A DNA stretch of 64,000 nt from Paracoccaceae bacterium (GTDB taxonomy: Bacteria > Pseudomonadota > Alphaproteobacteria > Rhodobacterales > Rhodobacteraceae). Location of the stretch: assembly GCA_026419405.1 (NCBI GenBank), contig JANZZL010000005.1, positions 6,689-70,688 on the forward strand, written 5' to 3'. Below the pieces are notes generated by a model that worked only from the letters and a program-made list of their open reading frames with translations, made no database searches and was not told the origin of the DNA. Position 1 is the first letter of the stretch, and each line of letters starts with the position of its first letter. Position numbers and translations under genes: made by a program. This document shows positions 7,445 through 32,348 of this stretch, piece after piece.

Positions 7445-8818
7445 ATGGCCGAGACCACGTTTCTTCTGAACGGGGAGACGGTCACCGTGACGGGCGAGCC
7501 GCCGACGCGCACCCTGCTCGACTGGCTGCGCGAGCGGCGCGGGCTGACCGGCACCAAGGAAGGCTGCAACGAGGGCGACTGCGGCGCCTGCACGGTCATC
7601 GTGCTGGACGGCGCGGGCGCGCAGCGGCGCGCGGCCGCGGTGAACGCCTGCATCACCTTCCTGCCGCAGCTGCACGGGCGGGCGGTGCGCACGGTGGAGG
7701 GGATCGCCGCCCCCGACGGCAGGCTGCACCCGGTGCAGCAGGCGCTGATCGACCATCACGGCTCGCAATGCGGGTTCTGCACGCCGGGGATCGTGGCCTC
7801 GCTCGTCGCCGCCGGCCTCAGGCGCGACCGCGCCTTCGACGATGTGCTCGCCGGGAACCTGTGCCGCTGCACCGGCTACGCGCCGATCGTGCGCGCGGCC
7901 GAGGCGGTCGATCCGGCCTTCGTGCCCGACTGGATCGACGACGTGCCGCCCGAGGTCGCGCCCGCGGCCTTCGCCCCCGAGACGGCGGAGGCGCTGGCCG
8001 CGTGGTATCTGGCCAACCCCGATGCGACCCTGGTCGCCGGGGCGACCGACGTCGGCCTCTGGGTCACCAAGGCGCTGCGCGACCTGCCGAAGGTCGCCTT
8101 CCTCAACCGCTGCGCGGACCTCCGCCGCGTCGAGGAGGGCGCGGAGGGGCTGCGGATCGGCGCGGGCGTGACGATCGAGGAGCTGCGCGCCCTGATGGCG
8201 CCGCGGCAGCCGTCCTTCGCCGAGCTGCTGCGCCGCTTCGGCTCGGCCCAGGTGCGCGCCAGCGCCACGATCGGCGGCAACATCGCCAACGGCTCGCCCA
8301 TCGGCGACGGGCCGCCGGCGCTGATCGCGCTCGGGGCGACGCTGCACCTGCGCCGGGGCGAGGCGCGGCGGACGATCCCGCTCGAGGCCTTCTTCCTCGA
8401 CTACGGCCGGCAGGACCGGCAGCCGGGCGAGTTCGTCGAGGCGGTGACGGTTCCCGCCGCGGCGGGAGAGCTGCGCTGCTACAAGCTCTCCAAGCGCTTC
8501 GACCAGGACATCTCGGCGGTCTGCGGCTGCTTCCTGATCCGCGTCGAGGACGGGGTGGTGACCGGGGCGCGCATCGCCTTCGGCGGCATGGCGGGCATTC
8601 CGAAGCGGGCCGCGCGGGTCGAGGCGGCGCTGCTCGGGCGGCCCTGGACGCTGGCCACGGTGGAGGCGGCGCTGCCCGCCTTCGCCGAGGACTTCACGCC
8701 GATTTCCGACATGCGCGCCTCGGCCGGCTACCGGATGGAGGCGGCGCGCGGCATGCTGCTGCGGGCCTTCCACGAAAGCCGGGGCACCCCGGTCTCGGTG
8801 CTGGAGGTGGCTCCGTGA
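7445..8818 (+). CDS. xdhA: Xanthine dehydrogenase small subunit (2Fe-2S + FAD)
   Basis: ATG at 7445 gives [11 protein letters not shown]. Has [11 protein letters not shown] and CGFCTPG iron-sulfur motifs, then an FAD-binding domain ([16 protein letters not shown]). Confidence 0.9.
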
Positions 8819-11286
8819 GCGTGCACCAGCCCCTGCCGCACGACGCGGCCGCCCTGCACGTCACCGGGCGGGCGCGCTACATCGACGACATCCCCGTGCC
8901 CGCGAACACGCTGCACCTCGCCTTCGGGCTCTCCTCGGTCGCCGCCGGGCGCTGGACGGCGATGGACCTCTCGGCGGTGCGCGCCGCGCCGGGGGTGGTG
9001 GCGGTGCTGACGGCGGCCGACCTGCCGCATGCCAACGACGTCTCGCCCGCGCCGGCCTTCCACGAGGAGATGCTCTCGTCGGGCGAGGTGCACTATCTCG
9101 GGATGCCGCTCTTCCTCGTGGTCGCCGAGAGCCACCTCGCCGCGCGCAGGGCGGCGCGGCTCGCCCGCGTGAGCTACGAGGAGCGCGCGCCGGTCCTCAC
9201 CATCGACGAGGCGCTCGCCGCGGACTGGCGCTTCGAGGAGGGCCCGCGGATCTGGGAGACGGGCGACGCCGAGGCCGCGATCGCCGCCGCGCCGCGGGTG
9301 GTCGCGGGGCGGATCGAGATCGGCGGGCAGGAACATTTCTACCTCGAGGGCCAGGCGGCGCTGGCGCTGCCGCAGGAGGGGGGTGACATGGTCGTCCACG
9401 CCTCCTCGCAGCACCCGACCGAGATCCAGCACAAGGTGGCCGAGGCGCTCGGCGTGCCGATGCACGCGGTGCGGGTCGAGGTGCGCCGGATGGGCGGCGG
9501 CTTCGGCGGCAAGGAAAGCCAGGGCAACGCGCTGGCGGTGGCCTGCGCGGTCGCGGCACGGGCCACGGGCCGGCCCTGCAAGATGCGCTACGACCGCGAC
9601 GACGACATGATGATCACCGGCAAGCGGCACGACTTCCGCATCGACTACCGCGTCGGGATCACGCCCGAGGGGCGCATCCTCGGCATCGTCTTCGAGCAGT
9701 TCTGCCGTTGCGGCTGGAGCCTCGACCTGAGCCTGCCGGTCGCCGACCGGGCGATGCTGCATGCCGACAACGCCTATCACCTGCCCGCGGCGCGGATCGT
9801 CAGCCACCGGCTGCGCACCAACACCCAGTCGGCCACCGCCTTCCGCGGCTTCGGCGGGCCGCAGGGCATGCTGGGGATCGAGCGGGTGATGGACCACATC
9901 GCCCATGCGCTGGGCCGCGATCCGCTCGAGGTGCGGCGGCTGAACTTCTACCGCCCGGCGGCGGCGCGGGCGGGGGGGCCGTCTGCCCCCCCGGCGCCTT
10001 CGGCGCGCCCCCCCGAGAGTATTTCCGACAGGATGAAGGAGCCGGAAGCGGAGGCGACGCCCGACCTCGCCTGGCACGGGGCCGAGGGGGGAGCAGTGCC
10101 GCAGGCGGCAGCCCGGACACCGCCGACCGTCGGCGCGACGGACGCCCAGACCACGCCCTACGGGCAGCCGGTCGAGGACTTCGTGCTGCACGAGCTGGTG
10201 GCGGAGCTCGCGCGGACCTCGGACTACGCGGCGCGGCGCGACGCGGTGCGGGCCTGGAACGCCGCCAGCCCGATCCTGAAGAAGGGGATCGCGCTCACGC
10301 CGGTGAAGTTCGGCATCAGCTTCACGCTGACGCATCTCAACCAGGCCGGCGCGCTCGTCCACGTCTACCAGGACGGCTCGATCCACATGAACCATGGCGG
10401 AACCGAGATGGGACAGGGCCTGTTCCGCAAGGTGGCGCAGGTGGCCGCGGCGGCCTTCGGGGTGGATGTCTCGGCGGTGAAGATCACCGCGACCGACACC
10501 GCCAAGGTGCCCAACACCTCGGCCACCGCCGCCTCCTCGGGCAGCGACCTCAACGGCATGGCGGTCAAGGCCGCCTGCGAGGCGATCCGCGAGCGCATGG
10601 CCGCGCATCTTGCGGCCCGGCACCAGGCCGACCCGGCCTCGGTCGTGTTCGAGGGCGGCCGGGTGCGGGTGGCGGGCGCCGACTACAGCTTCGCCGAGGT
10701 CGCGCACGACGCCTGGGCGAACCGCGTCAGCCTCTCGGCCACGGGCTTCTACCGGACGCCGAAGATCGTCTGGGACCGGATCCGCGGCCGGGGCCGGCCC
10801 TTCTACTACTTCGCCTATGGTGCCGCCGTCACCGAGGTGGTGATCGACACGCTGACCGGCGAGAACCGCATCCTGCGGGCCGACATCCTGCACGACTGCG
10901 GCGCCTCGCTGAACCCGGCGATCGACATCGGCCAGATCGAGGGCGGCTACGTGCAGGGCGCGGGCTGGCTGACCACCGAGGAGCTTGTGTGGGACGCCAA
11001 GGGGCGGCTCAGGACGCACGCGCCCTCGACCTACAAGATCCCGGCCTGTTCCGACCGGCCGCGGGTGTTCAACGTGGCGCTCTGGCCCGGCGAGAACCGC
11101 GAGGAGACGATCTACCGCTCGAAGGCGGTGGGCGAGCCGCCGCTGATGCTGGGCATCTCGGCGCTGATGGCGCTGTCGGACGCGGTGGCCGCCTGCGGCG
11201 ACGGCACCGTCTACCCCGCGCTCGACGCGCCGGCCACGCCGGAGCGGGTGCTGGCGGCGGTGCGCCGCGTCAGGGGGGCGGCATGA
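8815..11286 (+). CDS. xdhB: Xanthine dehydrogenase molybdopterin-binding large subunit, carrying an in-frame repeat-derived insertion
   Basis: GTG at 8815 overlaps the xdhA stop (GTGA). Has [32 protein letters not shown] and a conserved C-terminal Mo-binding region. Residues about 380-445 are Pro/Ala-rich and contain repeat copy A. Confidence 0.9.
9972..10039 (+). repeat. Repeat family copy A (inside xdhB, in frame)
   Basis: gggggggccgtctgccccccc-ggcgccttcggcgcg-cccccccgagagtatttccgacaggatgaagg. The right arm is identical to copy D. Confidence 0.85.
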
Positions 11287-12284
11287 GCCTCGACCTCGAG
11301 GCCCTGCGCGCCGCCGTGGCCCGCGAGGGCCGCGTCGCCCGCGTGGTCGTGGCCGAGGCGAAGGGCTCGGCCCCGCGCGAGGCCGGCGCGGCGATGCTGG
11401 TCTGGCCGGGCGGCCAGGAGGGGACGATCGGCGGCGGGGCGCTGGAATGGCAGGCCACGGCGCGCGCCCGCGCGCTGCTCGACCGGGCCGCGCAGGTCGC
11501 GGGCGCCAGGGTGGACCGCCAGGCGCTCGGCCCCGACCTGCAGCAGTGCTGCGGCGGGGCGGTCACGCTGGTGACCGAGGTCTTCGACGCGGACGCGCTC
11601 GACCGGCTTGCCCCGGCCGCGGGCCTCGTCGCGCGGCGCGTCGCGGGCGGGGCGGAGGCGGGAACGTCGGACGGCGGAATGTCGGACGGGGCCGAGATGC
11701 CGCTTGCGGTGCGCCGGCGGCTCCGGGCGGCGCGCGGAGAGGGCGCGCGCGGCGCGACGGCGCTGATCGAGGGCTGGCTGGTGGAGCCGCTTGCCGCGCC
11801 CGCGCGCCAGGTCTGGATCTGGGGGGCGGGGCACGTGGGCCGCGCGCTCGTGGCCGTGCTCGCGCCGCTGCCCGAGCTGTCGCTCACCTGGATCGACACC
11901 GCCGCGGAGCGGTTCCCCGCGGCGGTTCCGCCGGGGGTCGAGACGGTGGTGGCGGCGGACCCGGCCGCGCTCGTGCCCTTCGCGCCGCCGCGGGCCGAGC
12001 ACTTCGTCCTGACCTATTCGCACGCGCTCGACCTCGCGCTCTGCCATGCGCTGCTCGGGCGCGGCTTCGCGCGCTGCGGGCTGATCGGCTCGGCCACGAA
12101 GCGCGCGCGCTTCCGCCGGCGGCTCGCCGAGCTCGGCCATGCGCCGGAGGCGATCGCGCGGATCGACTGCCCGATCGGCGACCCCGCGCTCGGCAAGCAT
12201 CCGCAGGCGATCGCGATCTCGGTCGCGGCGGCGCTGCTGGCGGCGGGTCGGCGGAGCGCGGGCGCAAGGGAGGGCGCGGCATGA
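11283..12284 (+). CDS. xdhC: Xanthine dehydrogenase accessory/maturation protein XdhC
   Basis: ATGA overlap with the xdhB stop. XdhC/CoxI-like features: GSAPREAGAAMLV, GTIGGGALE, WIWGAGHVGRAL Rossmann-like motif. Confidence 0.85.
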   Translation: MSLDLEALRAAVAREGRVARVVVAEAKGSAPREAGAAMLVWPGGQEGTIGGGALEWQATARARALLDRAAQVAGARVDRQALGPDLQQCCGGAVTLVTEVFDADALDRLAPAAGLVARRVAGGAEAGTSDGGMSDGAEMPLAVRRRLRAARGEGARGATALIEGWLVEPLAAPARQVWIWGAGHVGRALVAVLAPLPELSLTWIDTAAERFPAAVPPGVETVVAADPAALVPFAPPRAEHFVLTYSHALDLALCHALLGRGFARCGLIGSATKRARFRRRLAELGHAPEAIARIDCPIGDPALGKHPQAIAISVAAALLAAGRRSAGAREGAA

Positions 12285-13840
12285 GGCAGGCCGAGGGGAT
12301 GCTGCTCGAGGTCGAGGGCCTGACCAAGGCCTATCCCGGCGTGGTGGCCAACAGCGGGGTGAGCTTCGCGGTCGCCCCCGGTGAGGTGCATGCGCTTCTG
12401 GGCGAGAACGGGGCAGGCAAGTCCACGCTGGTCAAGACCGTCTACGGCCTGATCCGGCCCGACGCGGGGCGGATGCGGCTTGAGGGGCGCGACTACGCCC
12501 CCGCCAGCCCGAGCGAGGCGCGCCGGGCCGGCGTGGCGATGGTGTTCCAGCACTTCTCGCTGTTCGAGGCGCTGGGCGTGGCCGAGAACGTGGCGCTGGG
12601 CATGGAGACGCCGCCGCCGATGCGCGAGCTGTCAGGCCGGATCCGCGAGGTGAGCCAGGCCTACGGCCTGCCGCTGGACCCCGAGCGGCTGGTGGGCGAC
12701 CTCTCGGCGGGCGAGCGCCAGCGGGTGGAGATCGTGCGCTGCCTGCTGCAGGACCCCAAGCTCCTGATCATGGACGAGCCGACGAGCGTGCTAACCCCGC
12801 AGGAGGTGGAGATCCTGTTCCACACGCTCAGGAAGCTTTCGGCCGAGGGCACGGCGATCCTCTACATCTCGCACAAGCTCGAGGAGATCCGCGCGCTCTG
12901 CGATGCCGCGACGATCCTGCGCCACGGCAAGGTCGTGGCGACCTGCGACCCGAAGGCCTGCACGGCGCGGGAGATGGCGGAGATGATGGTGGGGGCGAGC
13001 TTCGCCGCGCCGGCAAGGGCCGAGCGGCCGCGGGGCGCGCCGCTTGTCGAGGTGCGCGGCCTGTCCATGCCCTCGGCCAACCCCTTCGGCACGCCGCTGC
13101 GCGAGGTGAGCTTCTCGGTGGCGGCGGGCGAGATCCTCGGCATCGGCGGCGTCGCCGGCAACGGCCAGGACGAGCTGCTGGCGGCGCTGTCGGGCGAGGC
13201 CCGGGCGGCGCCGGGCGCGATCCGGTTCCGCGGCGCGGACATCGGCGGGCTCGGCCCGGTCGAGCGGCGGCGGCTCGGGCTCTGCGCGGCGCCCGAGGAA
13301 CGGCTGGGCCATGCCGCGGCGCCGGACATGAGCCTGACCGAGAACGCCTTGCTGACCGGGGTGGTGCGCGAGGGCCTTGCCACCCGCGGCTTCGTCGACT
13401 GGGGCCGGACCCGCGGCTTTGCCGAACGGATCATCCGGGCCTTCGACGTGCGCACGCCGGGGCCCGGCGTCGCGGCGCGGGCGCTCTCGGGGGGCAACCT
13501 CCAGAAGTTCGTGATCGGGCGGGAGGTGCTCCAGAGGCCCGAGGCGCTGGTCGTCAACCAGCCGACCTGGGGGGTGGATGCCGCCGCGGCGGCGGCGATC
13601 CGGCAGGCGCTGCTCGACCTCGCCTCCGGGGGCGCGGCGGTGATCGTGATCAGCCAGGATCTCGACGAGCTGCTCGAGATCGCCGATCGCTTCGCCGCGC
13701 TGAACGAGGGCCGGCTGAGCGCCCCGCGCCCGACGCAGGGCCTTTCGTTGGAGGAGATCGGACTGATGATGGGGGGAGCGCACGGGATGCACGAGGCCGA
13801 CATCGCGGCCGCGCACGAGGCCGAGGCCCATGCCGGCTGA
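12281..13840 (+). CDS. ABC transporter ATP-binding protein, duplicated ATPase (BMP/nucleoside-type system)
   Basis: ATGA overlap with the xdhC stop. Two ABC domains (GENGAGKST Walker A, LSAGERQRVEI signature; second domain GVAGNGQDEL, LSGGNLQK). Confidence 0.9.
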   Translation: MRQAEGMLLEVEGLTKAYPGVVANSGVSFAVAPGEVHALLGENGAGKSTLVKTVYGLIRPDAGRMRLEGRDYAPASPSEARRAGVAMVFQHFSLFEALGVAENVALGMETPPPMRELSGRIREVSQAYGLPLDPERLVGDLSAGERQRVEIVRCLLQDPKLLIMDEPTSVLTPQEVEILFHTLRKLSAEGTAILYISHKLEEIRALCDAATILRHGKVVATCDPKACTAREMAEMMVGASFAAPARAERPRGAPLVEVRGLSMPSANPFGTPLREVSFSVAAGEILGIGGVAGNGQDELLAALSGEARAAPGAIRFRGADIGGLGPVERRRLGLCAAPEERLGHAAAPDMSLTENALLTGVVREGLATRGFVDWGRTRGFAERIIRAFDVRTPGPGVAARALSGGNLQKFVIGREVLQRPEALVVNQPTWGVDAAAAAAIRQALLDLASGGAAVIVISQDLDELLEIADRFAALNEGRLSAPRPTQGLSLEEIGLMMGGAHGMHEADIAAAHEAEAHAG

Positions 13841-13876
13841 GGTCGCCCGGCGCCGTGCCTGCGGCCGCCGTGGCGC

Positions 13877-13930
13877 GGGGGGCCGCCTGCCCCCCGCGGC
13901 CCCCCGGGAGTATTTGCAACAGGCTGAAGG
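13877..13930 (+). repeat. Repeat family copy B (ABC ATPase | permease junction)
   Basis: ggggggccgcctgcccccc-gcgg-ccccccgggagtatttgcaacaggctgaagg. Ends 12 nt before the ATG at 13943. Confidence 0.85.
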
Positions 13931-13942
13931 GAGGGGTTGCGG

Positions 13943-15025
13943 ATGATCCGGCTGGAGAAGCGGCCCTCGCCTTCGCAGGGCTGGACGGCGGCGACGCCGC
14001 TGCTGGCCGTGGCGCTGACGATGCTGGCCGGGGGCGCGATGTTCGCCCTGCTCGGCAAGGACCCCCTGGCCGCGATCCGCACGATCTTCTGGGACCCCCT
14101 GTTCGGCGAGTTCGCCTGGTATTTCCGCGGCCAGCTTCTGGTCAAGGGCGGTCCGCTGATCCTGATCGCGATCGGGCTTTCGCTGGGCTTCCGGGCGGGG
14201 ATCTGGAACATCGGCGCCGAGGGTCAGTACATCATGGGTGCGCTCGCCGGCGCGGGCCTGGGGCTGGCGCTCTACCCCGACGCGGGGCGCTGGGTGTTCC
14301 CGCTGATGGTGGCGGCGGGCGCGGCGGGCGGCTGGGCCTGGGCGATGATCCCGGCGATCCTGAAGGTGCGGTTCCGCACCAACGAGATCCTGGTCTCGCT
14401 GCTGCTGGTCTATGTCGCGCAGAACCTGCTCGCCTCGGCCGCGCTCGGCTGGCTCAGGAACCCCGAGGGCGCGGGCTTTCCCGGCAGCCGGAACCTGTCG
14501 CAGTGGCCGGCGGCGGCGAACCCCGAGCTGATCCCCGGCACGGGGATGCACTGGGGCGTGGTGGCCGCGTTCCTGGCGGTGATCGGGGCCCATGTGCTGC
14601 TCTCGCGCCATCAGCTCGGCTATCACATCCGCCTCGCCGGGCAGGCGCCGCGGGCGGCGCGCTTCGCCGGCGTGAGTCCGGGGCGGCTGACGGTGTTCTG
14701 CATGGGCGTCTCCGGGGCGCTGGCCGGGATGGCGGGGCTCTTCGAGGTGACCGGGCCGGCCGGGCAGATCAGCATCGACTTCGCCTCGGGCTACGGCTTC
14801 ACGGCGATCATCGTGGCCTTCCTCGGGCGGCTCCACCCGGTCGGCATCCTGCTTGCGGGGCTGCTGATGGCGCTGACCTACGTCGGCGGCGACAACGCCG
14901 CGACGAACCTCGGGCTTCCCGCGGCGGCGATCCAGGCCTTCCAGGGGATGCTGCTGTTCTTCCTGCTCTCGGTGGACGTGCTGACCAACTACCGCATCCG
15001 CTTCGGCCGGAGGGAGATCGCCTGA
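13943..15025 (+). CDS. ABC transporter permease (BMP-type system)
   Basis: Hydrophobic multi-pass ORF. ATG at 13943 (MIRLEKRP) is preferred over the TTG at 13937. Preceded by a GGGAGG Shine-Dalgarno sequence just after repeat copy B. Confidence 0.85.
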   Translation: MIRLEKRPSPSQGWTAATPLLAVALTMLAGGAMFALLGKDPLAAIRTIFWDPLFGEFAWYFRGQLLVKGGPLILIAIGLSLGFRAGIWNIGAEGQYIMGALAGAGLGLALYPDAGRWVFPLMVAAGAAGGWAWAMIPAILKVRFRTNEILVSLLLVYVAQNLLASAALGWLRNPEGAGFPGSRNLSQWPAAANPELIPGTGMHWGVVAAFLAVIGAHVLLSRHQLGYHIRLAGQAPRAARFAGVSPGRLTVFCMGVSGALAGMAGLFEVTGPAGQISIDFASGYGFTAIIVAFLGRLHPVGILLAGLLMALTYVGGDNAATNLGLPAAAIQAFQGMLLFFLLSVDVLTNYRIRFGRREIA

Positions 15026-15960
15026 TGGACGCGCTTGTCTCGATCAACTGGGTGCTGCTCGCCGCCTCGCTGATGGTGGCGGCGACGCCGATCCTGCTGG
15101 CGGCCACGGGCGAGCTCGTGGTCGAGAGGGCGGGGGTGCTGAACCTCGGGGTCGAGGGAATGATGATCCTCGGCGCGATTTCGGGCTTCGCCGTGGGGGT
15201 GCGGACCGGCGCGCCGATCCTCGGCTTCGCGGCGGCGGCGCTCGCCGGGGCGGCGCTGTCGCTGCTGTTCGGCCTGCTCACCCAGATCCTCCTGTCGAAC
15301 CAGGTGGCCACGGGGCTTGCGCTCACCCTCTTCGGGCTCGGCCTCTCGGCGCTGCTCGGGCAGGGCTATGTCGGCATCAAGACGCCGGTGCTGGCCGACT
15401 GGAACGTGCCCGTGCTGTCCGACATCCCCGTGATCGGGCCGGTCCTGTTCCGGCACGACCCGATCCTCTACCTCTCGCTGCTGCTCGTCGCCGGGGTCTG
15501 GGCCTTCCTGCGCCACACCCGGGCCGGCCTCATCCTGCGCGCGGTGGGCGAGAGCCACGACGCGGCGCATGCGCTCGGCTACCGGGTGGTGGCCATCCGC
15601 CTTGCCGCCATCGCCTTCGGCGGGGCGCTGGCCGGGATGGGCGGGGCCTACATCAGCCTCGTGCGCGTGCCGCAGTGGACGGAAGGCATGACCGCCGGGG
15701 CGGGCTGGATCGCGCTGGCGATCGTGGTCTTCGCCTCGTGGAAGCCCTGGCGGGTGTTGCTCGGAGCCTATCTGTTCGGCGGCATCGCCGTGCTCCAGCT
15801 CAACCTGCAGGCCGCCGGGCTGAAGGTGCCCGTCGAAATCTTGTCGATGTCCCCGTATCTGGTAACGATCCTGGTGCTGGTCATCATCTCGTCCGACCGC
15901 TCGCGGGCGGCGCTGAGCGCCCCCGCCGCGCTCGGGCGCACATTCCACGCCTCGAGCTAG
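15025..15960 (+). CDS. ABC transporter permease (BMP-type system, second subunit)
   Basis: TGATG overlap with the previous permease. 311-aa hydrophobic protein (MDALVSINWVLLAAS..). Confidence 0.85.
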   Translation: MDALVSINWVLLAASLMVAATPILLAATGELVVERAGVLNLGVEGMMILGAISGFAVGVRTGAPILGFAAAALAGAALSLLFGLLTQILLSNQVATGLALTLFGLGLSALLGQGYVGIKTPVLADWNVPVLSDIPVIGPVLFRHDPILYLSLLLVAGVWAFLRHTRAGLILRAVGESHDAAHALGYRVVAIRLAAIAFGGALAGMGGAYISLVRVPQWTEGMTAGAGWIALAIVVFASWKPWRVLLGAYLFGGIAVLQLNLQAAGLKVPVEILSMSPYLVTILVLVIISSDRSRAALSAPAALGRTFHASS

Positions 15961-16012
15961 GGGCGCCACACGCGGCCGGGCACCGACCCGGCGGAAACAG
16001 GGAGAACCAAGG

Positions 16013-17095
16013 ATGAAGCGAAGAACCCTTCTTGCCACCGGTGCCGGCGCCGCCGCGGCCGCCGCGCTGGGCCTGCCCGCCCGGGCGCAGGACAAGCTCA
16101 AGGTCGGCTTCGTCTACGTCGGCCCGATCGGCGACGGCGGCTGGACCTACCAGCACGACCAGGGGCGCCTCGCCGTGCTGGAGGCCTACGGCGACCGGGT
16201 GGAGACCGTCTACCAGGAGAGCGTTCCCGAGGGCGCCGATGCCGAGCGGGTGCTGACGCAGATGGCGCTGGGCGGCGCGGGGCTGATCTTCACCACCTCG
16301 TTCGGCTACATGGACGCCACGATCAACGTCGCCTCCAAGTTCCCGAACGTGAAGTTCGAGCACGCGACCGGCTACAAGCGGGCCGAGAACGTGGCCACCT
16401 ACGACGCCCGCTTCTACGAGGGCCGCGCGGTGATCGGCACGATCGCGGGCCGGATGACGAAGTCGAACAAGATCGGCTACATCGCTTCGTTCCCGATCCC
16501 CGAGGTGATCCAGGGCATCAACTCCTACTTCCTGCACGCCCGCAAGGTGAACCCGGCGGTGGAACTGACGGTGGTCTGGGCCTACACCTGGTTCGACCCC
16601 GCCAAGGAGGCCGACGCCGCCAAGGCGATGCTGGAACAGGGCGTGGACGTGATCGCCCAGCACACCGACTCGACCGCGCCGCTTGCCGAGATGGCCAAGA
16701 CCCCCGGCGTGATCGGCTTCGGCCAGGCCTCGGACATGTCCGCCTTCAAGCCCACCCCGCGCGTCGCCTCGATCATCGACAACTGGGCGCCCTACTACGT
16801 CAAGCGCGTCGGCGCGGTGCTGGACGGCACCTGGACCTCGACCCACACCTGGGGCGGCATGAAGGACGGCGAGGTGGTGATCGGCGAGATCACCGAGGCG
16901 GTGCCCGAGGAGGTGCGCGCCGAGGCGCAGGCGATGATCGAGGCGATCACCGCCGGCAGCTACCACCCCTTCACCGGGCCGATCAACAAGCAGGACGGGT
17001 CGGTGTTCCTGGCCGAGGGCGAGGTGGCGACCGACGAGCAGCTCATGTCGATGAACTTCTTCGTCGAGGGCATCAAGGGCGACATCCCGAGCTGA
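16013..17095 (+). CDS. BMP family ABC transporter substrate-binding protein (purine/nucleoside-type)
   Basis: 360 aa. Tat/Sec-like signal (MKRRTLLATGAGAAAAAALGLPARA). BMP/PnrA-like body (KVGFVYVGPIGDGGWTYQHD). Confidence 0.9.
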   Translation: MKRRTLLATGAGAAAAAALGLPARAQDKLKVGFVYVGPIGDGGWTYQHDQGRLAVLEAYGDRVETVYQESVPEGADAERVLTQMALGGAGLIFTTSFGYMDATINVASKFPNVKFEHATGYKRAENVATYDARFYEGRAVIGTIAGRMTKSNKIGYIASFPIPEVIQGINSYFLHARKVNPAVELTVVWAYTWFDPAKEADAAKAMLEQGVDVIAQHTDSTAPLAEMAKTPGVIGFGQASDMSAFKPTPRVASIIDNWAPYYVKRVGAVLDGTWTSTHTWGGMKDGEVVIGEITEAVPEEVRAEAQAMIEAITAGSYHPFTGPINKQDGSVFLAEGEVATDEQLMSMNFFVEGIKGDIPS

Positions 17096-17118
17096 CCCGA
17101 CCCGGCGGGCAGGGTCCG

Positions 17119-17147
17119 GGAAGGGGCCCCGCGCGCGGGCCCCTTCC
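17119..17147 (+). terminator. GC-rich hairpin downstream of the BMP SBP gene
   Basis: Perfect 11-bp stem GGAAGGGGCCC / GGGCCCCTTCC with a 7-nt loop, 24 nt after the stop. No T-tract follows. Confidence 0.5.
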
Positions 17148-17196
17148 GCCTCGCGCGGGCCCTTGACGCGGCCGGCGGCGCCGGCTTGGTTCCGGC

Positions 17197-17298
17197 CCGG
17201 CGCGGCACGGTGGTGCCCGGCAGGGACCGGCGCGGCACGGTGGCGGCGCGGCACGGACCGGCACCGTGGCGGCGCCGGCAGGAGAAGGGACGGCACGG
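17197..17298 (+). promoter_or_regulatory. Direct-repeat cluster (CGGCACGG x4) upstream of the FAD oxidoreductase gene
   Basis: CCGGCGCGGCACGGTGG occurs at 17197-17213 and 17227-17243. The CGGCACGG core also occurs at 17249 and 17291. Function unknown. Confidence 0.3.
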
Positions 17299-18365
17299 TG
17301 CGGGACTTCCTGATCATCGGCGGCGGGATCGCCGGGGTCTCGGCGGCGGCGCGGCTGGCGCCGCTCGGCGCGGTCACGCTGACCGAGGCGGAGGACCACC
17401 TTGCCTACCACGCCTCGGGCCGGTCGGCGGCGCTGTTCGAGGAAAGCTACGGCAAGCCCGCGACCATCGCGCTCAACCGCGCGAGCCGGGCCTGGCACGA
17501 GGCCGCGGGGGTGCTGAGCCCGCGGGGGCTGATGGTCGTGGCCGATGCGGCGGGGCGCGAGGCCGCCGAGGCCGACGCCGCCGCGATGGGGCTGACCCCG
17601 CTCGCCCCCGAGGAGGCGCGCGCGCTGGTGCCGATCCTGAACGACCGGCTCGCCTGGGCCGCCCATTCGCCGGCGGCGCAGGACATCGACACCGACCGCC
17701 TGGTGCAGGGCTTCGCCCGCGAGGCGCGCGCGCATGGCGGCGAGATCCTGACCGGCGCGCGGGCGGAGCGGATCGTGCGGACCCCGCGGGGCTGGGCGGT
17801 CGCCACGCCGAAGGGCGAGATCGAGGCGCGGCTTCTCGTCAACGCGGCGGGCGCCTGGGTGGACGAGATCGCGCGCATGGCCGGGATCGCGCCGCTCGGC
17901 TTCGTGCCGATGCGCCGCTCGATGGCGCGGATCGCCGCGCCGGGAGGGCACGACCTGCGCGCCTGGCCGATGCTCTTCGGCCCCGGCGAGAGCTGGTATG
18001 CCAAGCCCGACGCGGGGGCGCTGCTGGTCTCGCCGGCCGAGGAGGACCCCGCCGAGCCGCACGATGCCTGGGCCGACGACATGGTTCTGGCCGAGGGCCT
18101 CGCCCGCTACGAGGCGATGGTGACCGAGCCCGTCACCCGGCCGATCGCGACCTGGGCGGGGCTGAGGACCTTCGCCCCCGACCGGGTGCTGGTGATCGGC
18201 TTCGCGCCGCAGGACCCGGCCTTCTTCTGGCTCGGCGGACAGGGCGGCTACGGCATGCAGTCCTCGCCCGCCGCCTCGCGCCTGGCCGCCGACCTGATCG
18301 GCGGCAGGCCGCCCGAGCTCGACGCGGCCACCGTCGCGGCGCTTTCGCCGGCGCGCTTCGGCTGA
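17298..18365 (+). CDS. FAD-dependent oxidoreductase (DAO family)
   Basis: GTG at 17298 gives [17 protein letters not shown] (dinucleotide-binding GxGxxG at the N-terminus). The track start at 17163 runs through repetitive non-coding-looking sequence. Confidence 0.75.
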
Positions 18366-18437
18366 GCTTTGCGGGTGACAGGCGCGGCGGCGGGTGGCAT
18401 GATTCGGGCCGAGCAGCAGACCGGACCACGGCCCCCG

Positions 18438-19250
18438 ATGACCCACCTGCCCCGCCGCGCGGCGCTTGCCCTCCTTGCCGGCTCGCTCGCCGCGGCCTGT
18501 GGCGGCGCCCCGCGGGAGCGCCTCTCGCAGGCCACGGCCCCCGCGCCGCTCGAGCTGCGCCCGCCGCGGTTCGGCGACGCGAAGCCCGTGGCCTGGACCG
18601 GACGGCCGCCCTCGGCCTACCCGGTGCACGGGATCGACGTCTCGCGCTACCAGCTCGACATCGACTGGGTGGCGGCGCGCGACGCCGGGGTGAGCTTCGC
18701 CTTCCTCAAGGCCACCGAGGGCGGGGACCGCGTGGACCCCTACTTCGAGCGCAACTGGCGCGAGGCGCGCCGCGCCGGCGTGCCGGTCGGCGCCTATCAC
18801 TTCTACTACCACTGCCGCGAACCCGAGGAGCAGGCGCGCTGGTTCATCCGCCACGTGCCGCGGGCGGCCGGCGCGCTTCCCCCGGTGCTCGACATCGAGT
18901 GGACGCCGTTCTCGCCCACCTGCACCATCCGCCCGCCCGCGGCCGAGGTGCGCGCGAAGGCGCAGCGCTATCTCGGGATCGTCGAACGCCACTACGGCCA
19001 GGCCGCGATCCTCTATTCCGCGCCCGACTTCTGGACCGACAACGAGATGTGGCGCCTGCCGGGCAACCACGAGTTCTGGCTGCGCTCGGTCACCCGGCAC
19101 CCGTCCGAGCGCTACGGCGGCCAGCACTGGACCTTCTGGCAGTATACCGGAACCGGGCTCGTGCCCGGCATTGCCACCCAGACCGACATCAACGTCTTCG
19201 CCGGCTCGGCGGCCGAGTTCCGCGCCTGGCTGGCGCGGCGGACGGCCTGA
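18438..19250 (+). CDS. Glycoside hydrolase family 25 (lysozyme/muramidase) lipoprotein
   Basis: ATG at 18438 gives [21 protein letters not shown] (lipobox). [22 protein letters not shown] and GAYHFY are GH25 hallmarks. Confidence 0.8.
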
Positions 19251-19438
19251 GCCCGGAGCCGGGGCGCGCGCCGGGGGGCGGCGAGGATCGCGGCGGTCCA
19301 AAGGGCGCCGCCGCGGCGCGCGGCGCACGGCGCGGGGGGGGGCGCCCGGACCCTCCTGCCCCTCCTGGCCGTCTTGCCTTGGCCGCGGCCTGCGCCATAC
19401 TGCCGGGCGAGCCGAAGACGTCCAACAGGGGAACACCG

Positions 19439-20224
19439 ATGAAAGCTGCCCTCGCCCTCGCCGCCGCCCTCGCGGCGACCGCCACCCTTGCCGCCGCGCA
19501 GGACCTGCCCGACCTCGGCGGCCGCGAGGTCGTCGTGGTGACCGAGAACGCCTACCCGCCGCTTCAGTTCCTCGATGCCTCGGGCAACGCGATCGGCTGG
19601 GAATACGACGCGATGGCCGAGATCGCGAAGCGGCTCAACATCACCGTGAAGTACGAGAACATCAGCTGGGACGCGATGATCGCCGCCGTCTCGGAGGGCC
19701 AGTACGACATGGGGATGACCGGCATCACCATCCGCGACGACCGCAAGGAGCAGGTGGACTTCTCGGATCCCTACATGCGCTCGGAGATGGTGATGATGGT
19801 GCGCGGCGACGAGGACCGCTTCACCGACGCGGCCTCCTTCGCCGCCAACCCCGACCTGCTGATGGCCGCCCAGCCCGGCACCACGCCGTTCTACGTGGGC
19901 GTCTACGAGGTGCTCGACGGCAACGAGGCCAATCCGCGCATCAAGCTGTTCGAGACCTTCGGCGCGGGCGTCGAGGCGCTGAAGGCGGGCGACGTGGATC
20001 TGGTGCTGACCGACGGCACCGCCGGCAAGGGCTATGTCGAGGCCTCGAACGGCGGGCTCAAGATCATCGGCGAGCCGCTCGGCACCGAGGACTTCGGCTT
20101 CATCTTCCCCAAGGGCTCGGACCTCGTGGAACCGATCAACGCCGCGATCGCCTCGCTCAGGGCCGACGGCACGCTGGACGCGCTGAACACCAAGTGGTTC
20201 CTCGACTACAAGATGGGCCAGTAG
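19439..20224 (+). CDS. Polar amino acid ABC transporter substrate-binding protein (family 3)
   Basis: Signal peptide [20 protein letters not shown], then the SBP_bac_3-like body (ENAYPPLQF.., [21 protein letters not shown]). Confidence 0.85.
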
Positions 20225-20264
20225 CCGCCCCCGGCCCCGGCTGCGGCCGGGGCCGCACCCTCCG

Positions 20265-21056
20265 ATGACGCCCGCCCCCGACAAGGACTTTCCCTGGTGG
20301 CTCGTGGTCCTCGCCGGGATCGGCGCCTGGCTGTTCTGGAACGTCCTGTCGAACCCGGTCTACGCCGATGTGCTGGCCAAGCTGGCGCTCGGCATCCGCA
20401 TCACGCTGTTCGTGACCGTGGTCGCCTTCTCGCTCGCCTCGGCGCTGGGGCTGCTGCTCGCGGTGATGTCGCTCTCGCGCCGTCTGGTGGTGCGGCAGGC
20501 GGCGCGGTTCTACATCGAGGTGATCCGCGGCATCCCGATCATCGTGCTGCTGCTCTACGTCGCCTTCGTCTTCGCGCCCCTTGCCGTGGCGGGCGTGAAC
20601 GCGGTGCTGGGGTGGATCGGCGCCGAGCCGGTCCGGCCGCGCGACTTCTCGCTGCTCTGGCGCGCGATCATCGCGCTGACCATCGCCTATTCGGCCTTCA
20701 TCGCCGAGGTGTTCCGCGCCGGGCTGCAGTCGGTGGACAAGGGCCAGACCGAGGCGGCGCAGTCGCTGGGCCTGAGCCGCTGGCAGACCTTCCGCCACGT
20801 CGTCTTCCCGCAGGCCTTCCGGGTGATCCTGCCGCCGCTCGGCAACGACTTCGTGGCGATGGTGAAGGATTCCTCGCTGGTCAGCGTGCTGGGCGTGACC
20901 GACATCACCCAGCTCGGCAAGGTGATCGCGGCGGGCAACTTCCGCTACTTCGAGACCTACAACGTGGTTGCCCTGCTCTATCTCTCGATGACGGTCACGC
21001 TGTCGCTGCTGCTGCGGCGTCTGGAGCAGCGCCTGAGGCGGCAGGAGGCGCGGTGA
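20265..21056 (+). CDS. Polar amino acid ABC transporter permease (His/Glu/Gln/Arg/opine family)
   Basis: 263 aa. Has the EAA-loop region (GQTEAAQSLGLSRWQTFRHVVFPQAFRVILPPLGN). Confidence 0.85.
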   Translation: MTPAPDKDFPWWLVVLAGIGAWLFWNVLSNPVYADVLAKLALGIRITLFVTVVAFSLASALGLLLAVMSLSRRLVVRQAARFYIEVIRGIPIIVLLLYVAFVFAPLAVAGVNAVLGWIGAEPVRPRDFSLLWRAIIALTIAYSAFIAEVFRAGLQSVDKGQTEAAQSLGLSRWQTFRHVVFPQAFRVILPPLGNDFVAMVKDSSLVSVLGVTDITQLGKVIAAGNFRYFETYNVVALLYLSMTVTLSLLLRRLEQRLRRQEAR

Positions 21057-21119
21057 GGGGGGAGCGAGGGGTTTCGCACCCCTCGCGCTCCCCGCGGCGT
21101 ATTTGCAACAAGAGGAAGG
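21057..21119 (+). repeat. Repeat family copy C (amino-acid permease | dcp junction)
   Basis: ggggggagcgaggggtttcgcacccctcgcgctccccgcggcgtatttgcaacaagaggaagg. Starts immediately after the permease TGA. Confidence 0.8.
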
Positions 21120-21174
21120 GGGAGGCTGGACCAGGGCGCCGGGGCGGCCTAACCAGGGCGCGGAGGAGCGCCCG

Positions 21175-23202
21175 ATGACCAACCCCCTGCTCGAGCCATG
21201 GACTGCGGCCTTCGGCCTTCCCCCCTTCGCCGGGATCCGGGATGACCATTTCGCGCCTGCCTTCGAGGCGGCGCTGGCCGCGGCGCGGGCCGAGGTGGAC
21301 CGCATCGCCGGGCAGGCCGAGCCGCCGACCTTCGCGAATACCATCGCCGCGCTGGAACTGGCCGAGGCCGGGCTCGACCGGGTTTCGGGGGTGTTCTTCG
21401 CGCTGGCCTCGGCCGATGCGACCGAGGCACGCGAGGCGCTGATGCGCGCGCTTGCCCCGCGGCTGGCGGCCTTCTCCGCGGAGGTCACCATGAACCGCGC
21501 GCTCTGGGCGCGCATCCGCGACCTCTGGGAGCGGCGCGAGGGGCTCGGGCTGACCGCCGAGGAGGCGCGGGTTCTGGAGCTCTACCGCCGGATGTTCCTG
21601 CGCGCCGGGGCCGGACTCGAGGGGGCGGCGGCCGAGCGGCTGAAGGCCGTGCAGGAGCGGCTGGCCGTGCTCGGCACGCGCTTCGCCCAGAACCTGCTGG
21701 CCGACGAGCGCGCCTGGGCGATGCCGCTGGCCGGGGCCGATCTGGAGGGGCTGCCGGCCTTCCTGGTGGCGGGTCTGGGCGCCGCGGCGGCCGAGCGCGG
21801 GCAGACGGGCCATGTGCTGACGCTCGCCCGGTCGCTGATCGTGCCGTTCCTGCAGTTCTCGCCGCGGCGCGACCTGCGCGAGGCGGCCTTCCGGGCCTGG
21901 GCGGCGCGCGGCGCGAACGGCGGCGAGACCGACAACCGCGCCATCGCCGCCGAGATCCTGAAGCTGCGCGAGGAGCGGGCGCGGCTGCTCGGCTACCCCT
22001 CATTCGCGGCCTGGAAGCTCGAGACCGAGATGGCCCGCACCCCCGAGGCGGTGCGCGCGCTGCTGATGGCGGTCTGGGGGCCGGCGAAGGCGCGCGCCGA
22101 GGCCGATGCCGCGGTGCTGACCGCGATGCTGCGGCAGGACGGGATCAACGGCCCGCTCGAGCCCTGGGACTGGCGCTACTACGCCGAGCGCCGCCGCCGG
22201 GCCGACTTCGCGATCGACGAGGCCGAGGTGAAACCCTACCTCCAGCTCGACGCGATGATCGGGGCGGCCTTCGACTGCGCGGGGCGGCTCTTCGGGCTCG
22301 AGTTCCGCCCGCTCGACGTCGCGCTCTACCATCCGGATGCCCGCGCCTGGGAGGTGACGCGCAACGGCCGCCACATGGCGGTGTTCATCGGCGACTGGCT
22401 CGCGCGGCCCTCGAAGCGGTCGGGCGCCTGGTGCACGGCGATGCGCGGGCAGCGCAAGCTGGGCGGCGAGGTGCGGCCGATCGTCCTCAACGTCTGCAAC
22501 TTCGCCCGGCCGCCGGCGGGGGAGCCCTGCCTGCTGAGCTACGACGACGCGCGGACGCTGTTCCACGAGTTCGGCCATGCGCTGCACCAGATGCTGAGCG
22601 ACGTGACCTTCGGCCTGATCTCGGGCACCAATGTCGCGCGCGACTTCGTGGAGCTGCCGAGCCAGCTCTTCGAGCACTGGCTGGAGGTGCCCGAGGTGCT
22701 GGAGCGGCATGCCCGCCACGCCGCCACCGGCGAGGCGATGCCGGGCGACCTGCGCGAGCGGATGCTGGCGGCGCGGAACGCCGACACCGGCCACGCGACG
22801 GTGGAATACCTCGCCTCGGCGCTCGTGGACCTCGCCTTCCACGAGGGGGCCGCGCCCGAGGACCCGATGGCCCTCGAGGCCGAGGTGCTGGCCGCGATCG
22901 GCGCGCCCGGGGCGATCCCGATGCGGCACGCGACCCCGCATTTCGCCCATGTCTTCGCGGGCGACGGCTATGCGGCGGGCTACTACAGCTACATGTGGTC
23001 CGAGGTCATGGACGCCGATGCCTTCGCCGCCTTCGAGGAGGCCGGGGGGCCGTTCGACCCCGAGGTGGCCGCGCGGCTCGAGCGGCACATCCTCTCGGCC
23101 GGCGCCTCGCAGGAGGCGGAGGCGCTCTATCTGGCGTTCCGCGGCCGGATGCCGGGGGTGGAGGCGCTGCTCAGGGCCCGGGGGCTGGCCGACGCGGCCT
23201 GA
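21175..23202 (+). CDS. dcp: M3 family peptidyl-dipeptidase
   Basis: ATG at 21175 (MTNPLLEPW). 675 aa. HEFGHALH zinc motif with M3-type flanks. Confidence 0.9.
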   Translation: MTNPLLEPWTAAFGLPPFAGIRDDHFAPAFEAALAAARAEVDRIAGQAEPPTFANTIAALELAEAGLDRVSGVFFALASADATEAREALMRALAPRLAAFSAEVTMNRALWARIRDLWERREGLGLTAEEARVLELYRRMFLRAGAGLEGAAAERLKAVQERLAVLGTRFAQNLLADERAWAMPLAGADLEGLPAFLVAGLGAAAAERGQTGHVLTLARSLIVPFLQFSPRRDLREAAFRAWAARGANGGETDNRAIAAEILKLREERARLLGYPSFAAWKLETEMARTPEAVRALLMAVWGPAKARAEADAAVLTAMLRQDGINGPLEPWDWRYYAERRRRADFAIDEAEVKPYLQLDAMIGAAFDCAGRLFGLEFRPLDVALYHPDARAWEVTRNGRHMAVFIGDWLARPSKRSGAWCTAMRGQRKLGGEVRPIVLNVCNFARPPAGEPCLLSYDDARTLFHEFGHALHQMLSDVTFGLISGTNVARDFVELPSQLFEHWLEVPEVLERHARHAATGEAMPGDLRERMLAARNADTGHATVEYLASALVDLAFHEGAAPEDPMALEAEVLAAIGAPGAIPMRHATPHFAHVFAGDGYAAGYYSYMWSEVMDADAFAAFEEAGGPFDPEVAARLERHILSAGASQEAEALYLAFRGRMPGVEALLRARGLADAA

Positions 23203-23237
23203 GCGATCCGCCCCGCCGCGCGGCACGTAGAAGGGCC

Positions 23238-23765
23238 ATGACCCTGACACGCCGCTCCGCCCTGGCGCTCGCCGCCGCCCTGCCGCTCGCCGCCTGCGCG
23301 GCCGCGCCGCCCTCGCCCGCGCGCGCCCTGCCGATCACGCTGGTCGAGGCCTTCCGCGGCCGCACCCGCGGCGCGGGCCTGTTCCGCGCGCCGCTCGCCG
23401 GGATCGAGCGGCGCTTTACCGCCCGCCTCGACGGGCGGCTGCGCGGCGATACGCTGACCGTCGTGGAGGACTTCGTCTACGACGACGGGCAGCAGGACCG
23501 CCTGACCTGGGTCTTCCGGCGGACCGGCGAGGGAACGTGGGACGGCCGGCGCGAGGATACCGTCGGCACTGCGAAGGTGGTCGAGGACGGCCGCGAGATC
23601 CGCCTGAGCTACCTGGCCGACTTCCGCTCGACCTCGGGCGTCACCCGGCTGGGCTTCGCCGACGTGATCTGGCGCCCCGCGCCGGGCCTCGTGATCAACG
23701 ACGCCGTCGTCACCCGCTGGGGCCTGCGGGTCGGCACCGTCCGCTTCGAGCTGCGCCGCGCCTGA
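23238..23765 (+). CDS. DUF3833-like lipoprotein
   Basis: 175 aa. Lipobox LPLAAC. Body (FRGRTRGAGLF..RFTARLDG..LTVVEDFVYDDGQQDRLTWVF) resembles DUF3833 from memory. Confidence 0.6.
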   Translation: MTLTRRSALALAAALPLAACAAAPPSPARALPITLVEAFRGRTRGAGLFRAPLAGIERRFTARLDGRLRGDTLTVVEDFVYDDGQQDRLTWVFRRTGEGTWDGRREDTVGTAKVVEDGREIRLSYLADFRSTSGVTRLGFADVIWRPAPGLVINDAVVTRWGLRVGTVRFELRRA

Positions 23766-23769
23766 GGCG

Positions 23770-26121: not shown

Positions 26122-26122
26122 G

Positions 26123-26175
26123 CCTTCATCCTGTCGGAAATACTCTCGGGGGGTCCGGGGGGCAGACGGCCCCCC
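26123..26175 (-). repeat. Repeat family copy D (deoC | aldehyde dehydrogenase junction)
   Basis: The reverse complement reads ggggggccgtctgcccccc-gga-ccccccgagagtatttccgacaggatgaagg, followed by cATG of the ALDH gene. It fills most of the 66-nt spacer. Confidence 0.85.
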
Positions 26176-26187
26176 GGCCCCGCCGCC

Positions 26188-27195
26188 TCATGCCAGGGGA
26201 TGCCGCTCGGCCGAGGAATACCGCCCGGTCACGAAATGCTCGAGCTGGCGCTCGATGTCGCCCAGAAGGCTCGAGGCGCCGAAGCGGAACAGGTCGGGCC
26301 GCAGCCAGCGGTCGCCGAGCTCGTCCTTCATCAGGCTCAGGTAGACGAGCGCGTCCTTCGCCTTCGCGATCCCCCCCGCCGGCTTGTAGCCGACGCGGAA
26401 GCCGGTGCGCTCGTGATAGTCGCGGATCGCCCGCACCATGGTCAGGCTGACCGGCAGCGTGGCGTTCACCGCCTCCTTGCCGGTCGAGGTCTTGATGAAG
26501 TCGGCCCCTGCCATCATGCAGACCAGGCTCGCCCGCGCGACGTTGCGCAGCGTCCCGAGCTCGCCGGTCGCCAGGATCGCCTTGACATGCGCCGCCCCGC
26601 AGGCCTCGCGGAAGGCGCGCATCTCGTCATAGAGCGCCTGCCAGTTCCCGGTCAGCACGTGCCGGCGCGAGATCACGATGTCGATCTCCTGCGCCCCGGC
26701 GCGGAGGCTCTCGCCGATCTCGGCAAGGCGCAGGCGGAAGGGCGAGAGCCCGGCGGGAAATCCGGTCGAGACCGCCGCGACGGGGATCCCCGTCCCCCGC
26801 AGCGCCGCGACGGCCGGCGCCACCATCTCGTGGTAGACGCAGACGGCGGCGACCGTCAGCCCCTCCATCCCGAGCGCGGCCAGGAGGTCGGCGCGGACCG
26901 GCCGTCGCGCCTTGGCGCAGAGCCGGCGCACCCGGCCCTCGGTGTCGTCGCCCGCCAGCGTGGTCAGGTCGATCAGGCTGATCGCGCGGCAGAGCCAGGC
27001 CGCCTGCCATTCCTTCTTCACCGTCCGCCGCCCCGGCAGCGTGGCGCAGCGCCGCTCGATCGCCGAGGTATTGGCCTGCACCGCGGCCACCCAGTCGAGG
27101 TCGAGCTCCATCCCGGCGTTGCGCGGGTGCCCCACCTGCGGCAGGTGCGCCGCCGCGGCGGCGGCGGCGGCCGGGGTCTTGGTGGATGTGTCCAT
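26188..27195 (-). CDS. deoC: Deoxyribose-phosphate aldolase (long form)
   Basis: ATG at 27195 (MDTSTKTP). 335 aa. Has IDLTTL, VCVYH and FIKTSTGK (Schiff-base Lys region), typical of DeoC/DERA. Confidence 0.85.
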   Translation of the reverse strand: MDTSTKTPAAAAAAAAHLPQVGHPRNAGMELDLDWVAAVQANTSAIERRCATLPGRRTVKKEWQAAWLCRAISLIDLTTLAGDDTEGRVRRLCAKARRPVRADLLAALGMEGLTVAAVCVYHEMVAPAVAALRGTGIPVAAVSTGFPAGLSPFRLRLAEIGESLRAGAQEIDIVISRRHVLTGNWQALYDEMRAFREACGAAHVKAILATGELGTLRNVARASLVCMMAGADFIKTSTGKEAVNATLPVSLTMVRAIRDYHERTGFRVGYKPAGGIAKAKDALVYLSLMKDELGDRWLRPDLFRFGASSLLGDIERQLEHFVTGRYSSAERHPLA

Positions 27196-27329
27196 GGGCT
27201 CGGCCCTCCTCGGCCGCGAGACCGCCAAGGTCGCATGCGGGTCCGGGCTTGGCAAGGCGGGCACAGGCCCCGCAACCTGCCCGGCGGCCCGGCCGCCCGG
27301 CCGGCGGCGTGCCGTTTCCCGGCCCGCCC

Positions 27330-28822: not shown

Positions 28823-28899
28823 TGGCGATCCCGGAAGGACTCGAACCCTCAGCCTGCTGATTAGAAGTCAGCTGCTCTATCCAGTTGAGCTACGGGACC
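28823..28899 (-). tRNA. tRNA-Arg (anticodon UCU)
   Basis: The reverse complement reads GGTCCCGTAGCTCAACTGGATAGAGCAGCTGACTTCTAATCAGCAGGCTGAGGGTTCGAGTCCTTCCGGGATCGCCA. It folds as a 77-nt cloverleaf with a 7-bp acceptor stem, anticodon loop CU-UCU-AA, T-loop TTCGAGT and an encoded CCA. Confidence 0.9.
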
Positions 28900-32344: not shown

Positions 32345-32348
32345 CGCC

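Follow-up and report, generated by a model that had tools for sequence, protein, structure and literature searches.

Rickettsia palindromic elements (RPEs), which Ogata et al. reportedly described in 2000, are short palindromic repeats that lie in frame within protein genes and are translated at positions compatible with the fold of the host protein; non-coding copies occur too. RPEs are mentioned in passages of PMC1779305 and PMC2635572. The repetitive extragenic palindromic sequences (REPs), the bacterial interspersed mosaic elements (BIMEs) and the REP doublets forming hairpins (REPINs), which a passage of PMC2817692 describes as mobilised by REP-associated tyrosine transposases (RAYTs), are GC-rich stem-loops with many intergenic copies, in either orientation and in mosaic or nested arrangements. 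[quoted passage not shown] Here we analyze a repeat family, the R element, starting from a stretch of 64,000 nucleotides of contig JANZZL010000005.1 (the window), which is part of a metagenome-assembled genome (MAG) of the Rhodobacteraceae. One copy in the window, copy A, lies in frame within xdhB, the gene for the molybdopterin subunit of xanthine dehydrogenase (XDH); members of many genera of the family carry the element at the same site, and it is conserved there as nucleotide sequence, not as amino acid sequence.

No published description of this repeat family was found in the searchable literature. The reading that we prefer, with a probability of roughly 0.7, is that the R element is an old REP- or MITE-like element that forms a disordered linker tolerated by the enzyme and is kept near its consensus by exchange, that loop cassettes recombine between lineages, and that XdhB is functional.

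Results

A repeat of an intergenic family is read in frame within xdhB

The initial annotation of the window, made from its sequence, had reported a full copy of a repeat in frame in xdhB within a segment of 67 codons, and we find both as described (Table 1). The 823-aa frame contains neither a stop codon nor a frameshift, and copy A is translated in it as a peptide of 22 residues. Its last 31 nt (10009-10039) are identical (31/31, 100%) to 26123-26153 on the minus strand, within intergenic copy D, so the right arms agree as the annotation had stated; hairpin 1 is also identical between the two copies. At least five copies in addition to copy A are present in the window, one of them (copy C) with three mismatches to the tail pattern and a score below the nhmmer threshold. 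The tail pattern has four matches in the window, with none expected from 100 shuffles, and copy A is also matched by a profile built solely from 70 intergenic metagenome copies. The xdhA gene of the window has no repeat copy, and the linker of its product has no R-derived peptide.

The same site, frame and orientation are shared across the Rhodobacteraceae

We extracted the XdhB loops from 80 species-level xdh loci of related, marine Rhodobacteraceae and the window (81 sequences in all). With a DNA profile, the element is found in the xdhB loop in 40 of these sequences, always in the plus orientation, in one frame and at the same site; isolate genomes (Rhodovulum sp. 12E13, Tropicimonas and Yoonia vestfoldensis DSM 16212) are among those with this architecture. 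Complete genomes with an intact xdhB copy include those of Dinoroseobacter shibae DFL12 and Y. vestfoldensis. In about 24 of the 80 genomes, the element also occurs, always reversed, in the linker between the iron-sulfur (FeS) and flavin adenine dinucleotide (FAD) parts of XdhA, again in one frame (..FFLPEISSGG..GGADSPP..); L008 and L016, for instance, have a reversed xdhA copy as well as a forward xdhB copy. The same profile has only ~16 other matches in these loci, which are intergenic. The profile built from the 70 intergenic metagenome copies yields 35 matches in xdhB, 20 in xdhA and 11 elsewhere in these 1.6 Mb of xdh-centred loci; because a profile derived from intergenic copies alone matches the xdh sites, the xdh copies are true members of the family. 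That the carriers agree in site, frame and orientation points to a single old insertion into xdhB and another into xdhA.

Among the 120 closest homologues of the window XdhB, which are 71-86% identical to it and come from many genera, the corresponding segment is 95-158 aa long, and most of these segments read GG(L/P)SAP..PPE(D/S)IS.K.K. In an XdhB tree calculated with the loop excluded, carriers are scattered through all of the clades, mixed with short loops and with decayed remnants (L024, L026, L023, L047 and 'ASGGDISAKMK' forms). The segment ERGGLSAPPSPPEPIATKK in the XdhB from R. capsulatus resembles the one-hairpin R peptides of P0035, P0069 and L046; the crystallized enzyme apparently has a decayed remnant of the element. 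The annotation had held that a homologous segment in orthologues from many unrelated taxa would make the insert an ancestral loop; many Rhodobacteraceae genera do share the site, but what they share is still recognizable as a repeat at the level of DNA and is not merely an ancestral peptide loop.

The element is conserved as DNA and not as protein

The Ile codon in the '..DIS' tail is ATT in 38 of 38 copies; in the remainder of these xdhB genes, 15% of the Ile codons are ATT and 83% are ATC. GGG accounts for 52% of the Gly codons inside the element vs 26% outside, and CCC for 68% of the Pro codons inside vs 30% outside. Hairpin 1 is often identical across genera (GGGGGGCTGTCTGCCCCCC). The sequence of hairpin 2 and the amino acids that it encodes vary between genera, but its stems stay paired: in 59 two-hairpin metagenome copies (loci L085-L164), with 48 distinct stems, we count 391 Watson-Crick pairs, one G:T pair and seven mismatches, and 23 of these copies have TGC as the loop. 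Hairpin 2 is hypervariable and yet behaves as a palindrome that is perfect as DNA.

Two other motifs of XdhB loops provide internal controls. The S motif, which lies outside the repeat, shows synonymous variation in 30 orthologues (TCG/AGC for Ser; CTC/CTG/TTG for Leu), and the Y motif found in relatives (GPGTGRRYGGAHSPK) shows ordinary synonymous variation. The embedded element is, then, conserved at the nucleotide level and not at the amino acid level.

Two candidates were rejected on the basis of this comparison. The Y motif is not another DNA repeat, since its codons vary synonymously. Nor is the 67-codon insert as a whole a single mobile unit; the annotation had raised the possibility that the mobile unit may be larger than the repeat core, but the additional ~35 codons contain the separate S motif, D[LIV][AT]SRG, which is maintained as protein. 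The S motif is conserved in the long XdhB loops (loci L001-L080), and the window has an SR to WH change in it.

The family outside the xdh genes and the case for a cis function

Conservation of this kind could also be the product of purifying selection for a cis function of the nucleic acid in the xdh operon (transcription, mRNA stability, translational pausing or recombination), with the element held at consensus as a DNA or RNA structure or as the binding site of a conserved factor. The frozen synonymous sites and the hairpins that are perfect across genera fit this explanation, as do the conservation of the family consensus across the bacterial family and the concentration of the element in the xdh genes, which contribute 55 of the 66 profile matches in the xdh-centred loci. 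In metagenomes, more than 120 exact-consensus copies are present. A scan that gave 81 copies in 80 loci places seven of them, co-oriented, in xdhB and four, reversed, in xdhA; as its pattern came from xdhB copies, the xdh share (11/81, 14%) is inflated. Using codon-position GC as a heuristic and reading the translations, we found none of the other 70 copies convincingly in a gene, and the same procedure placed none of the non-xdh matches in the genome loci (~16 with the first profile, 11 with the second) convincingly in a gene. Intergenic copies more often have the same orientation as the gene whose 3' end precedes them than the opposite one (48 vs 14), a bias that a cis function could also explain.

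Several observations argue against it. In many lineages the copy is absent or decayed and xdhB is nevertheless intact, and the closest relative has exchanged the element for an unrelated loop (see below). The copies in xdhA are reversed, which argues against a role at the level of the transcript, and the near absence of G:T pairs is atypical for an RNA helix under selection. No match to the R element was obtained with the Rfam covariance models (gathering score) over the whole window, and no R copy was called in a terminator scan of 9000-28000, where the hairpins precede a C-run instead of a T-run. As RNA, copy A folds no more stably than its shuffles (z = -0.17), although folding energy is uninformative in a G/C-rich context. 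We regard a cis function as unlikely, but it is the rival explanation that survives best.

Spanning open reading frames (ORFs) at L098, L108, L114, L117, L137, L147, L152, L157 and L161 were considered as host genes and rejected as non-coding frames or 5' leader; the copy at L098 lies in the 5' leader upstream of prfC. A protein search with a 152-aa concatenation of the six consensus frames gave no scored match, so the statement that only xdh genes host in-frame copies refers to the DNA samples.

Same-genome similarity, cassette turnover and independent insertions

The tails of the xdhB copies are more similar to the intergenic copies in their own genome than to those in other genomes (identity 0.704 vs 0.615; 0/5000 permutations, p<0.0002). 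For the xdhA and xdhB copies, the identity of the full-length core is 0.713 within a genome vs 0.674 between genomes (p=0.001); for the tails alone, the difference (0.656 vs 0.622) is not significant (p=0.41). Of the copies in the window, only D agrees with copy A, a pattern that suggests that sequence was exchanged recently.

The loop also changes as a unit. The nearest relative of the window (P0002, L081/L082) has 93% amino acid identity outside the loop and ~90% DNA identity in the flanks; its loop is of the non-homologous Y type, that is, it contains another cassette and is not an empty site. In L083 and L084, the XdhB cores share 96% amino acid identity, and at the same place one has R and the other Y, respectively. 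The orthologous xdhA and intergenic copies of these two loci differ by whole hairpins: compared with L083 1009-1068, L084 2934-3010 has one additional hairpin, a perfect one (CGCCATTGG..CCAATGGCG), bordered by a direct duplication of 9 nt (CCCCCTCGC); this looks like a nested insertion. Downstream of xdhC, at the intergenic junction of the ATP-binding cassette (ABC) ATPase gene with the permease gene, L083 and L084 have no copy, the window and L020 have one in forward orientation, and L022 has one in reverse; these states indicate independent insertions of the repeat family. As a separate observation, the Y cassette, G[PA]GTG[RHK]R[YF]GG[AP]HSPK, is conserved as protein in L081 (8708-11065), L006, L011, L021, L067 and other loops.

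The annotation had interpreted copy A as an intergenic-type repeat apparently incorporated as a low-complexity loop, and a recent insertion into the xdhB of this genome would be one form of this. A repeat is indeed translated there, in a segment that is predicted to be disordered and is expanded relative to canonical XdhB, and both the 31/31 identity with copy D and the nearest relative without the element would fit a recent event. However, in relatives with 82-85% core identity (L001/P0006, P0003) the R+S architecture recurs with its position and frame unchanged, genera across the family share site, frame and orientation (40/81), and the nearest relative has a different cassette. A recent, lineage-specific insertion is very unlikely.

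The linker lies between two Pfam domains of an intact XdhB

The window XdhB contains three Pfam domains, Ald_Xan_dh_C (aa 17-124), MoCoBD_1 (aa 147-378) and MoCoBD_2 (aa 465-749), with E-values of 4e-99, 3.7e-88 and 9.9e-26, and it is similar over its full length to the solved XdhB from R. capsulatus (PDB 1JRO_B; E=0), to which it aligns in two blocks, aa 1-396 and 439-823; these properties identify it as an XdhB. The solved protein has 777 aa, the annotation having given roughly 770-780 aa for canonical bacterial XdhB, and the window protein has 42 extra residues (aa 397-438). The insert falls between the end of MoCoBD_1 (aa 378) and the start of MoCoBD_2 (aa 465). In an AlphaFold2 model based on a 57-sequence alignment, the predicted local distance difference test (pLDDT) score is <50 at aa 386-441 and 85-96 in the flanks. 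All six frames of the repeat consensus are open; since its G-runs give Gly codons and its C-runs Pro codons, the element is translated as a disordered Gly/Pro/Ser/Ala linker.

In 116 diverse representatives of the XDH/aldehyde oxidase (AO) proteins, the median length of the inter-block segment is 92 aa (10th-90th percentile 90.5-97) vs ~155 aa here; the linker region in the window is, then, ~60 aa longer than the canonical XDH/AO segment. For the 150 representatives among the matches listed from a search of 1.84 billion sequences, each has 1-4 matched stretches (mostly 2), and in none does the best-scoring stretch span query positions ~386-436. The shorter canonical segment and the lack of an aligned distant homologue indicate that the expansion is clade-specific. 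Orthologues commonly have a loop that is at least as long, up to 75 aa.

The annotation had offered as an alternative that xdhB is functionally compromised; it could also be a pseudogene in the making. The insert of 67 low-complexity codons could be taken in this sense, as could the altered S motif (SRG to WHG), which is otherwise conserved. However, the ORF is open and the operon intact, the flanking domains are predicted with confidence, the insert lies between Pfam domains at a position where orthologues accommodate long loops, and the active R. capsulatus enzyme apparently has a homologous remnant. The catalytic motifs GGKE, DRAMLHAD and VGEPP (AVGEPP) are identical in the alignment of the window XdhB with 1JRO_B; in R. 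capsulatus numbering, we take Glu232 in GGKE, Arg310 in DRAMLHAD and Glu730 in VGEPP to be the catalytic residues. Loss of function is highly improbable; the sequence and the model suggest that XdhB remains functional.

The least probable explanation is that the assembly contains a chimeric join at a repeat. The MAG source and the tendency of relatives' contigs to end near repeats (L082 ends at the stop of an ABC gene) might suggest such an artefact, but both flanks are collinear xdhB in one frame and the isolates named above have the same architecture.

Features of the window and its neighborhood

The window is GC-rich, and its XdhB product is 100% identical to an NCBI protein of a Rhodobacteraceae MAG. 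The xdhA-xdhB-xdhC operon is intact, and the stop codon of each of its first two genes overlaps the start of the next gene; the position of xdhC matches the gene order in L082 and L083, where the product matches XdhC_CoxI. The coordinates of the features are collected in Table 1.

Table 1. Coordinates of the R element copies, the XdhB linker and the surrounding genes. Positions are those of the window unless a locus is named.
Feature	Position	Strand	Remarks
Copy A, inside xdhB	9972-10039	+	hairpin 1, hairpin 2, C-run and tail
Copy A, hairpin 1	9972-9992	+	G7C-CGTCT-GC7
Copy A, hairpin 2	9994-10006	+	stem arms 9994-9998/10002-10006
Copy A, C-run and tail	10008-10039	+	GAGAGTATTTCCGACAGGATGAAGG
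Inter-domain linker expansion	9952-10152	+	clade-specific; aa 380-446, 67 codons; between RRLNFY and TPYGQ blocks
S motif	10063-10080	+	DLAWHG in the window; D[LIV][AT]SRG[AS] in orthologues; protein-level motif, outside repeat
Copy B, intergenic	13872-13939	+	between ABC ATPase stop (13840) and permease start
Copy C, intergenic, divergent	21061-21128	+	71% identical to copy B
Copy D, intergenic, one-hairpin form	26123-26175	-	between TGA stop (26190-26188) and ATG (26121-26119)
Copy E, intergenic, two-hairpin form	32347-32421	-	nhmmer profile match
Copy F, intergenic	35586-35643	-	nhmmer profile match; absent from the list of the initial annotation
XdhA-linker copies, examples	L016 9053-9135; L008 9049-9122; L005 9062-9146; L028 9057-9137	- relative to xdhA	about 20 other loci in addition
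ABC ATPase-permease junction	window 13840-13944; L020 ~14900-15060; L022 14857-14923; L083 ~14441; L084 ~14918		
xdhA	7445-8818	+	FeS and FAD subunit, 457 aa; stop overlaps xdhB start
xdhB	8815-11286	+	molybdopterin subunit, 823 aa; intact ORF; GTG start overlapping xdhA stop
xdhC	11283-12284	+	chaperone, 333 aa; ATG at 11283; next gene of the operon

Three observations concern other parts of the window. A tRNA gene at 28826-28899 (minus strand) is the sole Rfam match of the window. Positions 47537-47632 contain a tandem array with about 8 copies of the 12-nt unit GCGCCCTCACCG. The segments 522-1237 and 24709-25427, which are 24,190 nt apart, are ~73% identical; these are probably paralogous genes.

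Discussion

We propose the following history for the R element. The family is built of a hairpin of the form G6-7C-loop-GC6-7, in some copies a second hairpin that is hypervariable, and then a C-run with a purine-rich GAGRRTATTT.. tail, and it is spread through Rhodobacteraceae genomes, mainly in intergenic positions. One copy would have entered the XdhB linker between the molybdopterin-binding domains before the sampled genera diverged, and its translation as a disordered Gly/Pro/Ser/Ala linker would have been tolerated by the enzyme. The embedded copy would then stay near consensus by gene conversion or replacement with copies in the same genome, with copy D the putative most recent exchange partner of copy A in the window; whole loop cassettes may also be swapped between lineages by recombination.

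Several points weigh against this history. No conversion tract or donor was directly observed, and the same-genome similarity might instead have arisen as the copies co-evolved with a binding factor specific to the lineage. Re-insertion that is specific for site and frame would mimic the single ancient origin that we deduce from the shared frame and orientation. The history does not account for the restriction of in-frame hosting to xdhA and xdhB (0/70 of the other exact-consensus copies are genic), and the xdh share of the metagenome scan is subject to the bias of its pattern. The remnant in R. capsulatus was judged from its protein sequence only, and the window derives from a MAG.

A bolder idea, which we put forward tentatively and consider doubtful, is that the two XDH linkers are long-term 'safe harbours' or master sites for the element, where the consensus is maintained either through homing or conversion or through nucleotide-level selection on a cis function, and that a dedicated palindrome-generating mechanism diversifies hairpin 2. 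If this were true, a REP-like element would be conserved as DNA within an enzyme gene family-wide, and the crystallized R. capsulatus XDH would provide an experimental system.

If we return to the preferred reading, that is, an old element kept near consensus by exchange, repeat or selfish DNA has become protein sequence in a well-studied enzyme, and its conservation at the nucleotide level across many genera is unusual. The system offers a measure of gene conversion vs selection on repeat families. It helps to account for the heterogeneity in the length of XdhB in the Rhodobacteraceae (764-833 aa). For annotators, Pro/Gly-rich inserts in XdhA and XdhB are to be read as repeat-derived linkers and not as errors or pseudogene scars.

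Comparison with known systems

The R. capsulatus XdhB is the solved protein with which the host of copy A can be compared. The two proteins share ~70% identity over both halves, the order of the domains, the catalytic motifs and, at the same site, a Pro-rich segment; in R. capsulatus this segment is short, the protein being 42 residues shorter there, and looks, as protein sequence, like a decayed remnant.

With REPs, BIMEs and REPINs, the R element shares the GC-rich stem-loop, the mosaic or nested arrangement and the many intergenic copies in either orientation; it is a short, GC-rich, imperfect palindrome, of which the 64 kb contain at least five intergenic copies. In contrast to REPs and REPINs, it has a long, non-palindromic, AT-containing tail and no REPIN doublet: an alignment of 80 copies is variable 5' of the G-run and consists of single units, with neither a GTAG-like 5' tetranucleotide nor inverted doublets. 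Also, REPs are extragenic by definition.

Like the RU and ERIC sequences and the MITEs of Coxiella, the R element is a repeat inside a gene that contributes peptide. However, those elements have terminal inverted repeats (TIRs) of the MITE type and scattered, strain-specific positions; the site of the R element is orthologous across a bacterial family. Its ends differ in the 80-copy alignment (a G-run hairpin vs a purine-rich tail), so no TIR is present, and no clear target-site duplication (TSD) is found at filled vs empty junctions, the sole duplication being that in L084.

The arrangement of RPEs is the most similar. Copy A is in an open frame, is translated, and lies at a structurally permissive, inter-domain position with pLDDT <50; this likeness is one of arrangement and implies no relatedness in sequence. 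The R element differs from RPEs in being shorter (about 55-80 nt), in occurring in free-living, GC-rich Rhodobacteraceae, and in being preserved as nucleotide sequence, in different genera, at one orthologous site. Although RPEs are found in many unrelated genes and the in-frame hosts of the R element, in the samples examined, are xdhA and xdhB only, the RPE is, judged by this analogy, the closest known counterpart of the R element.

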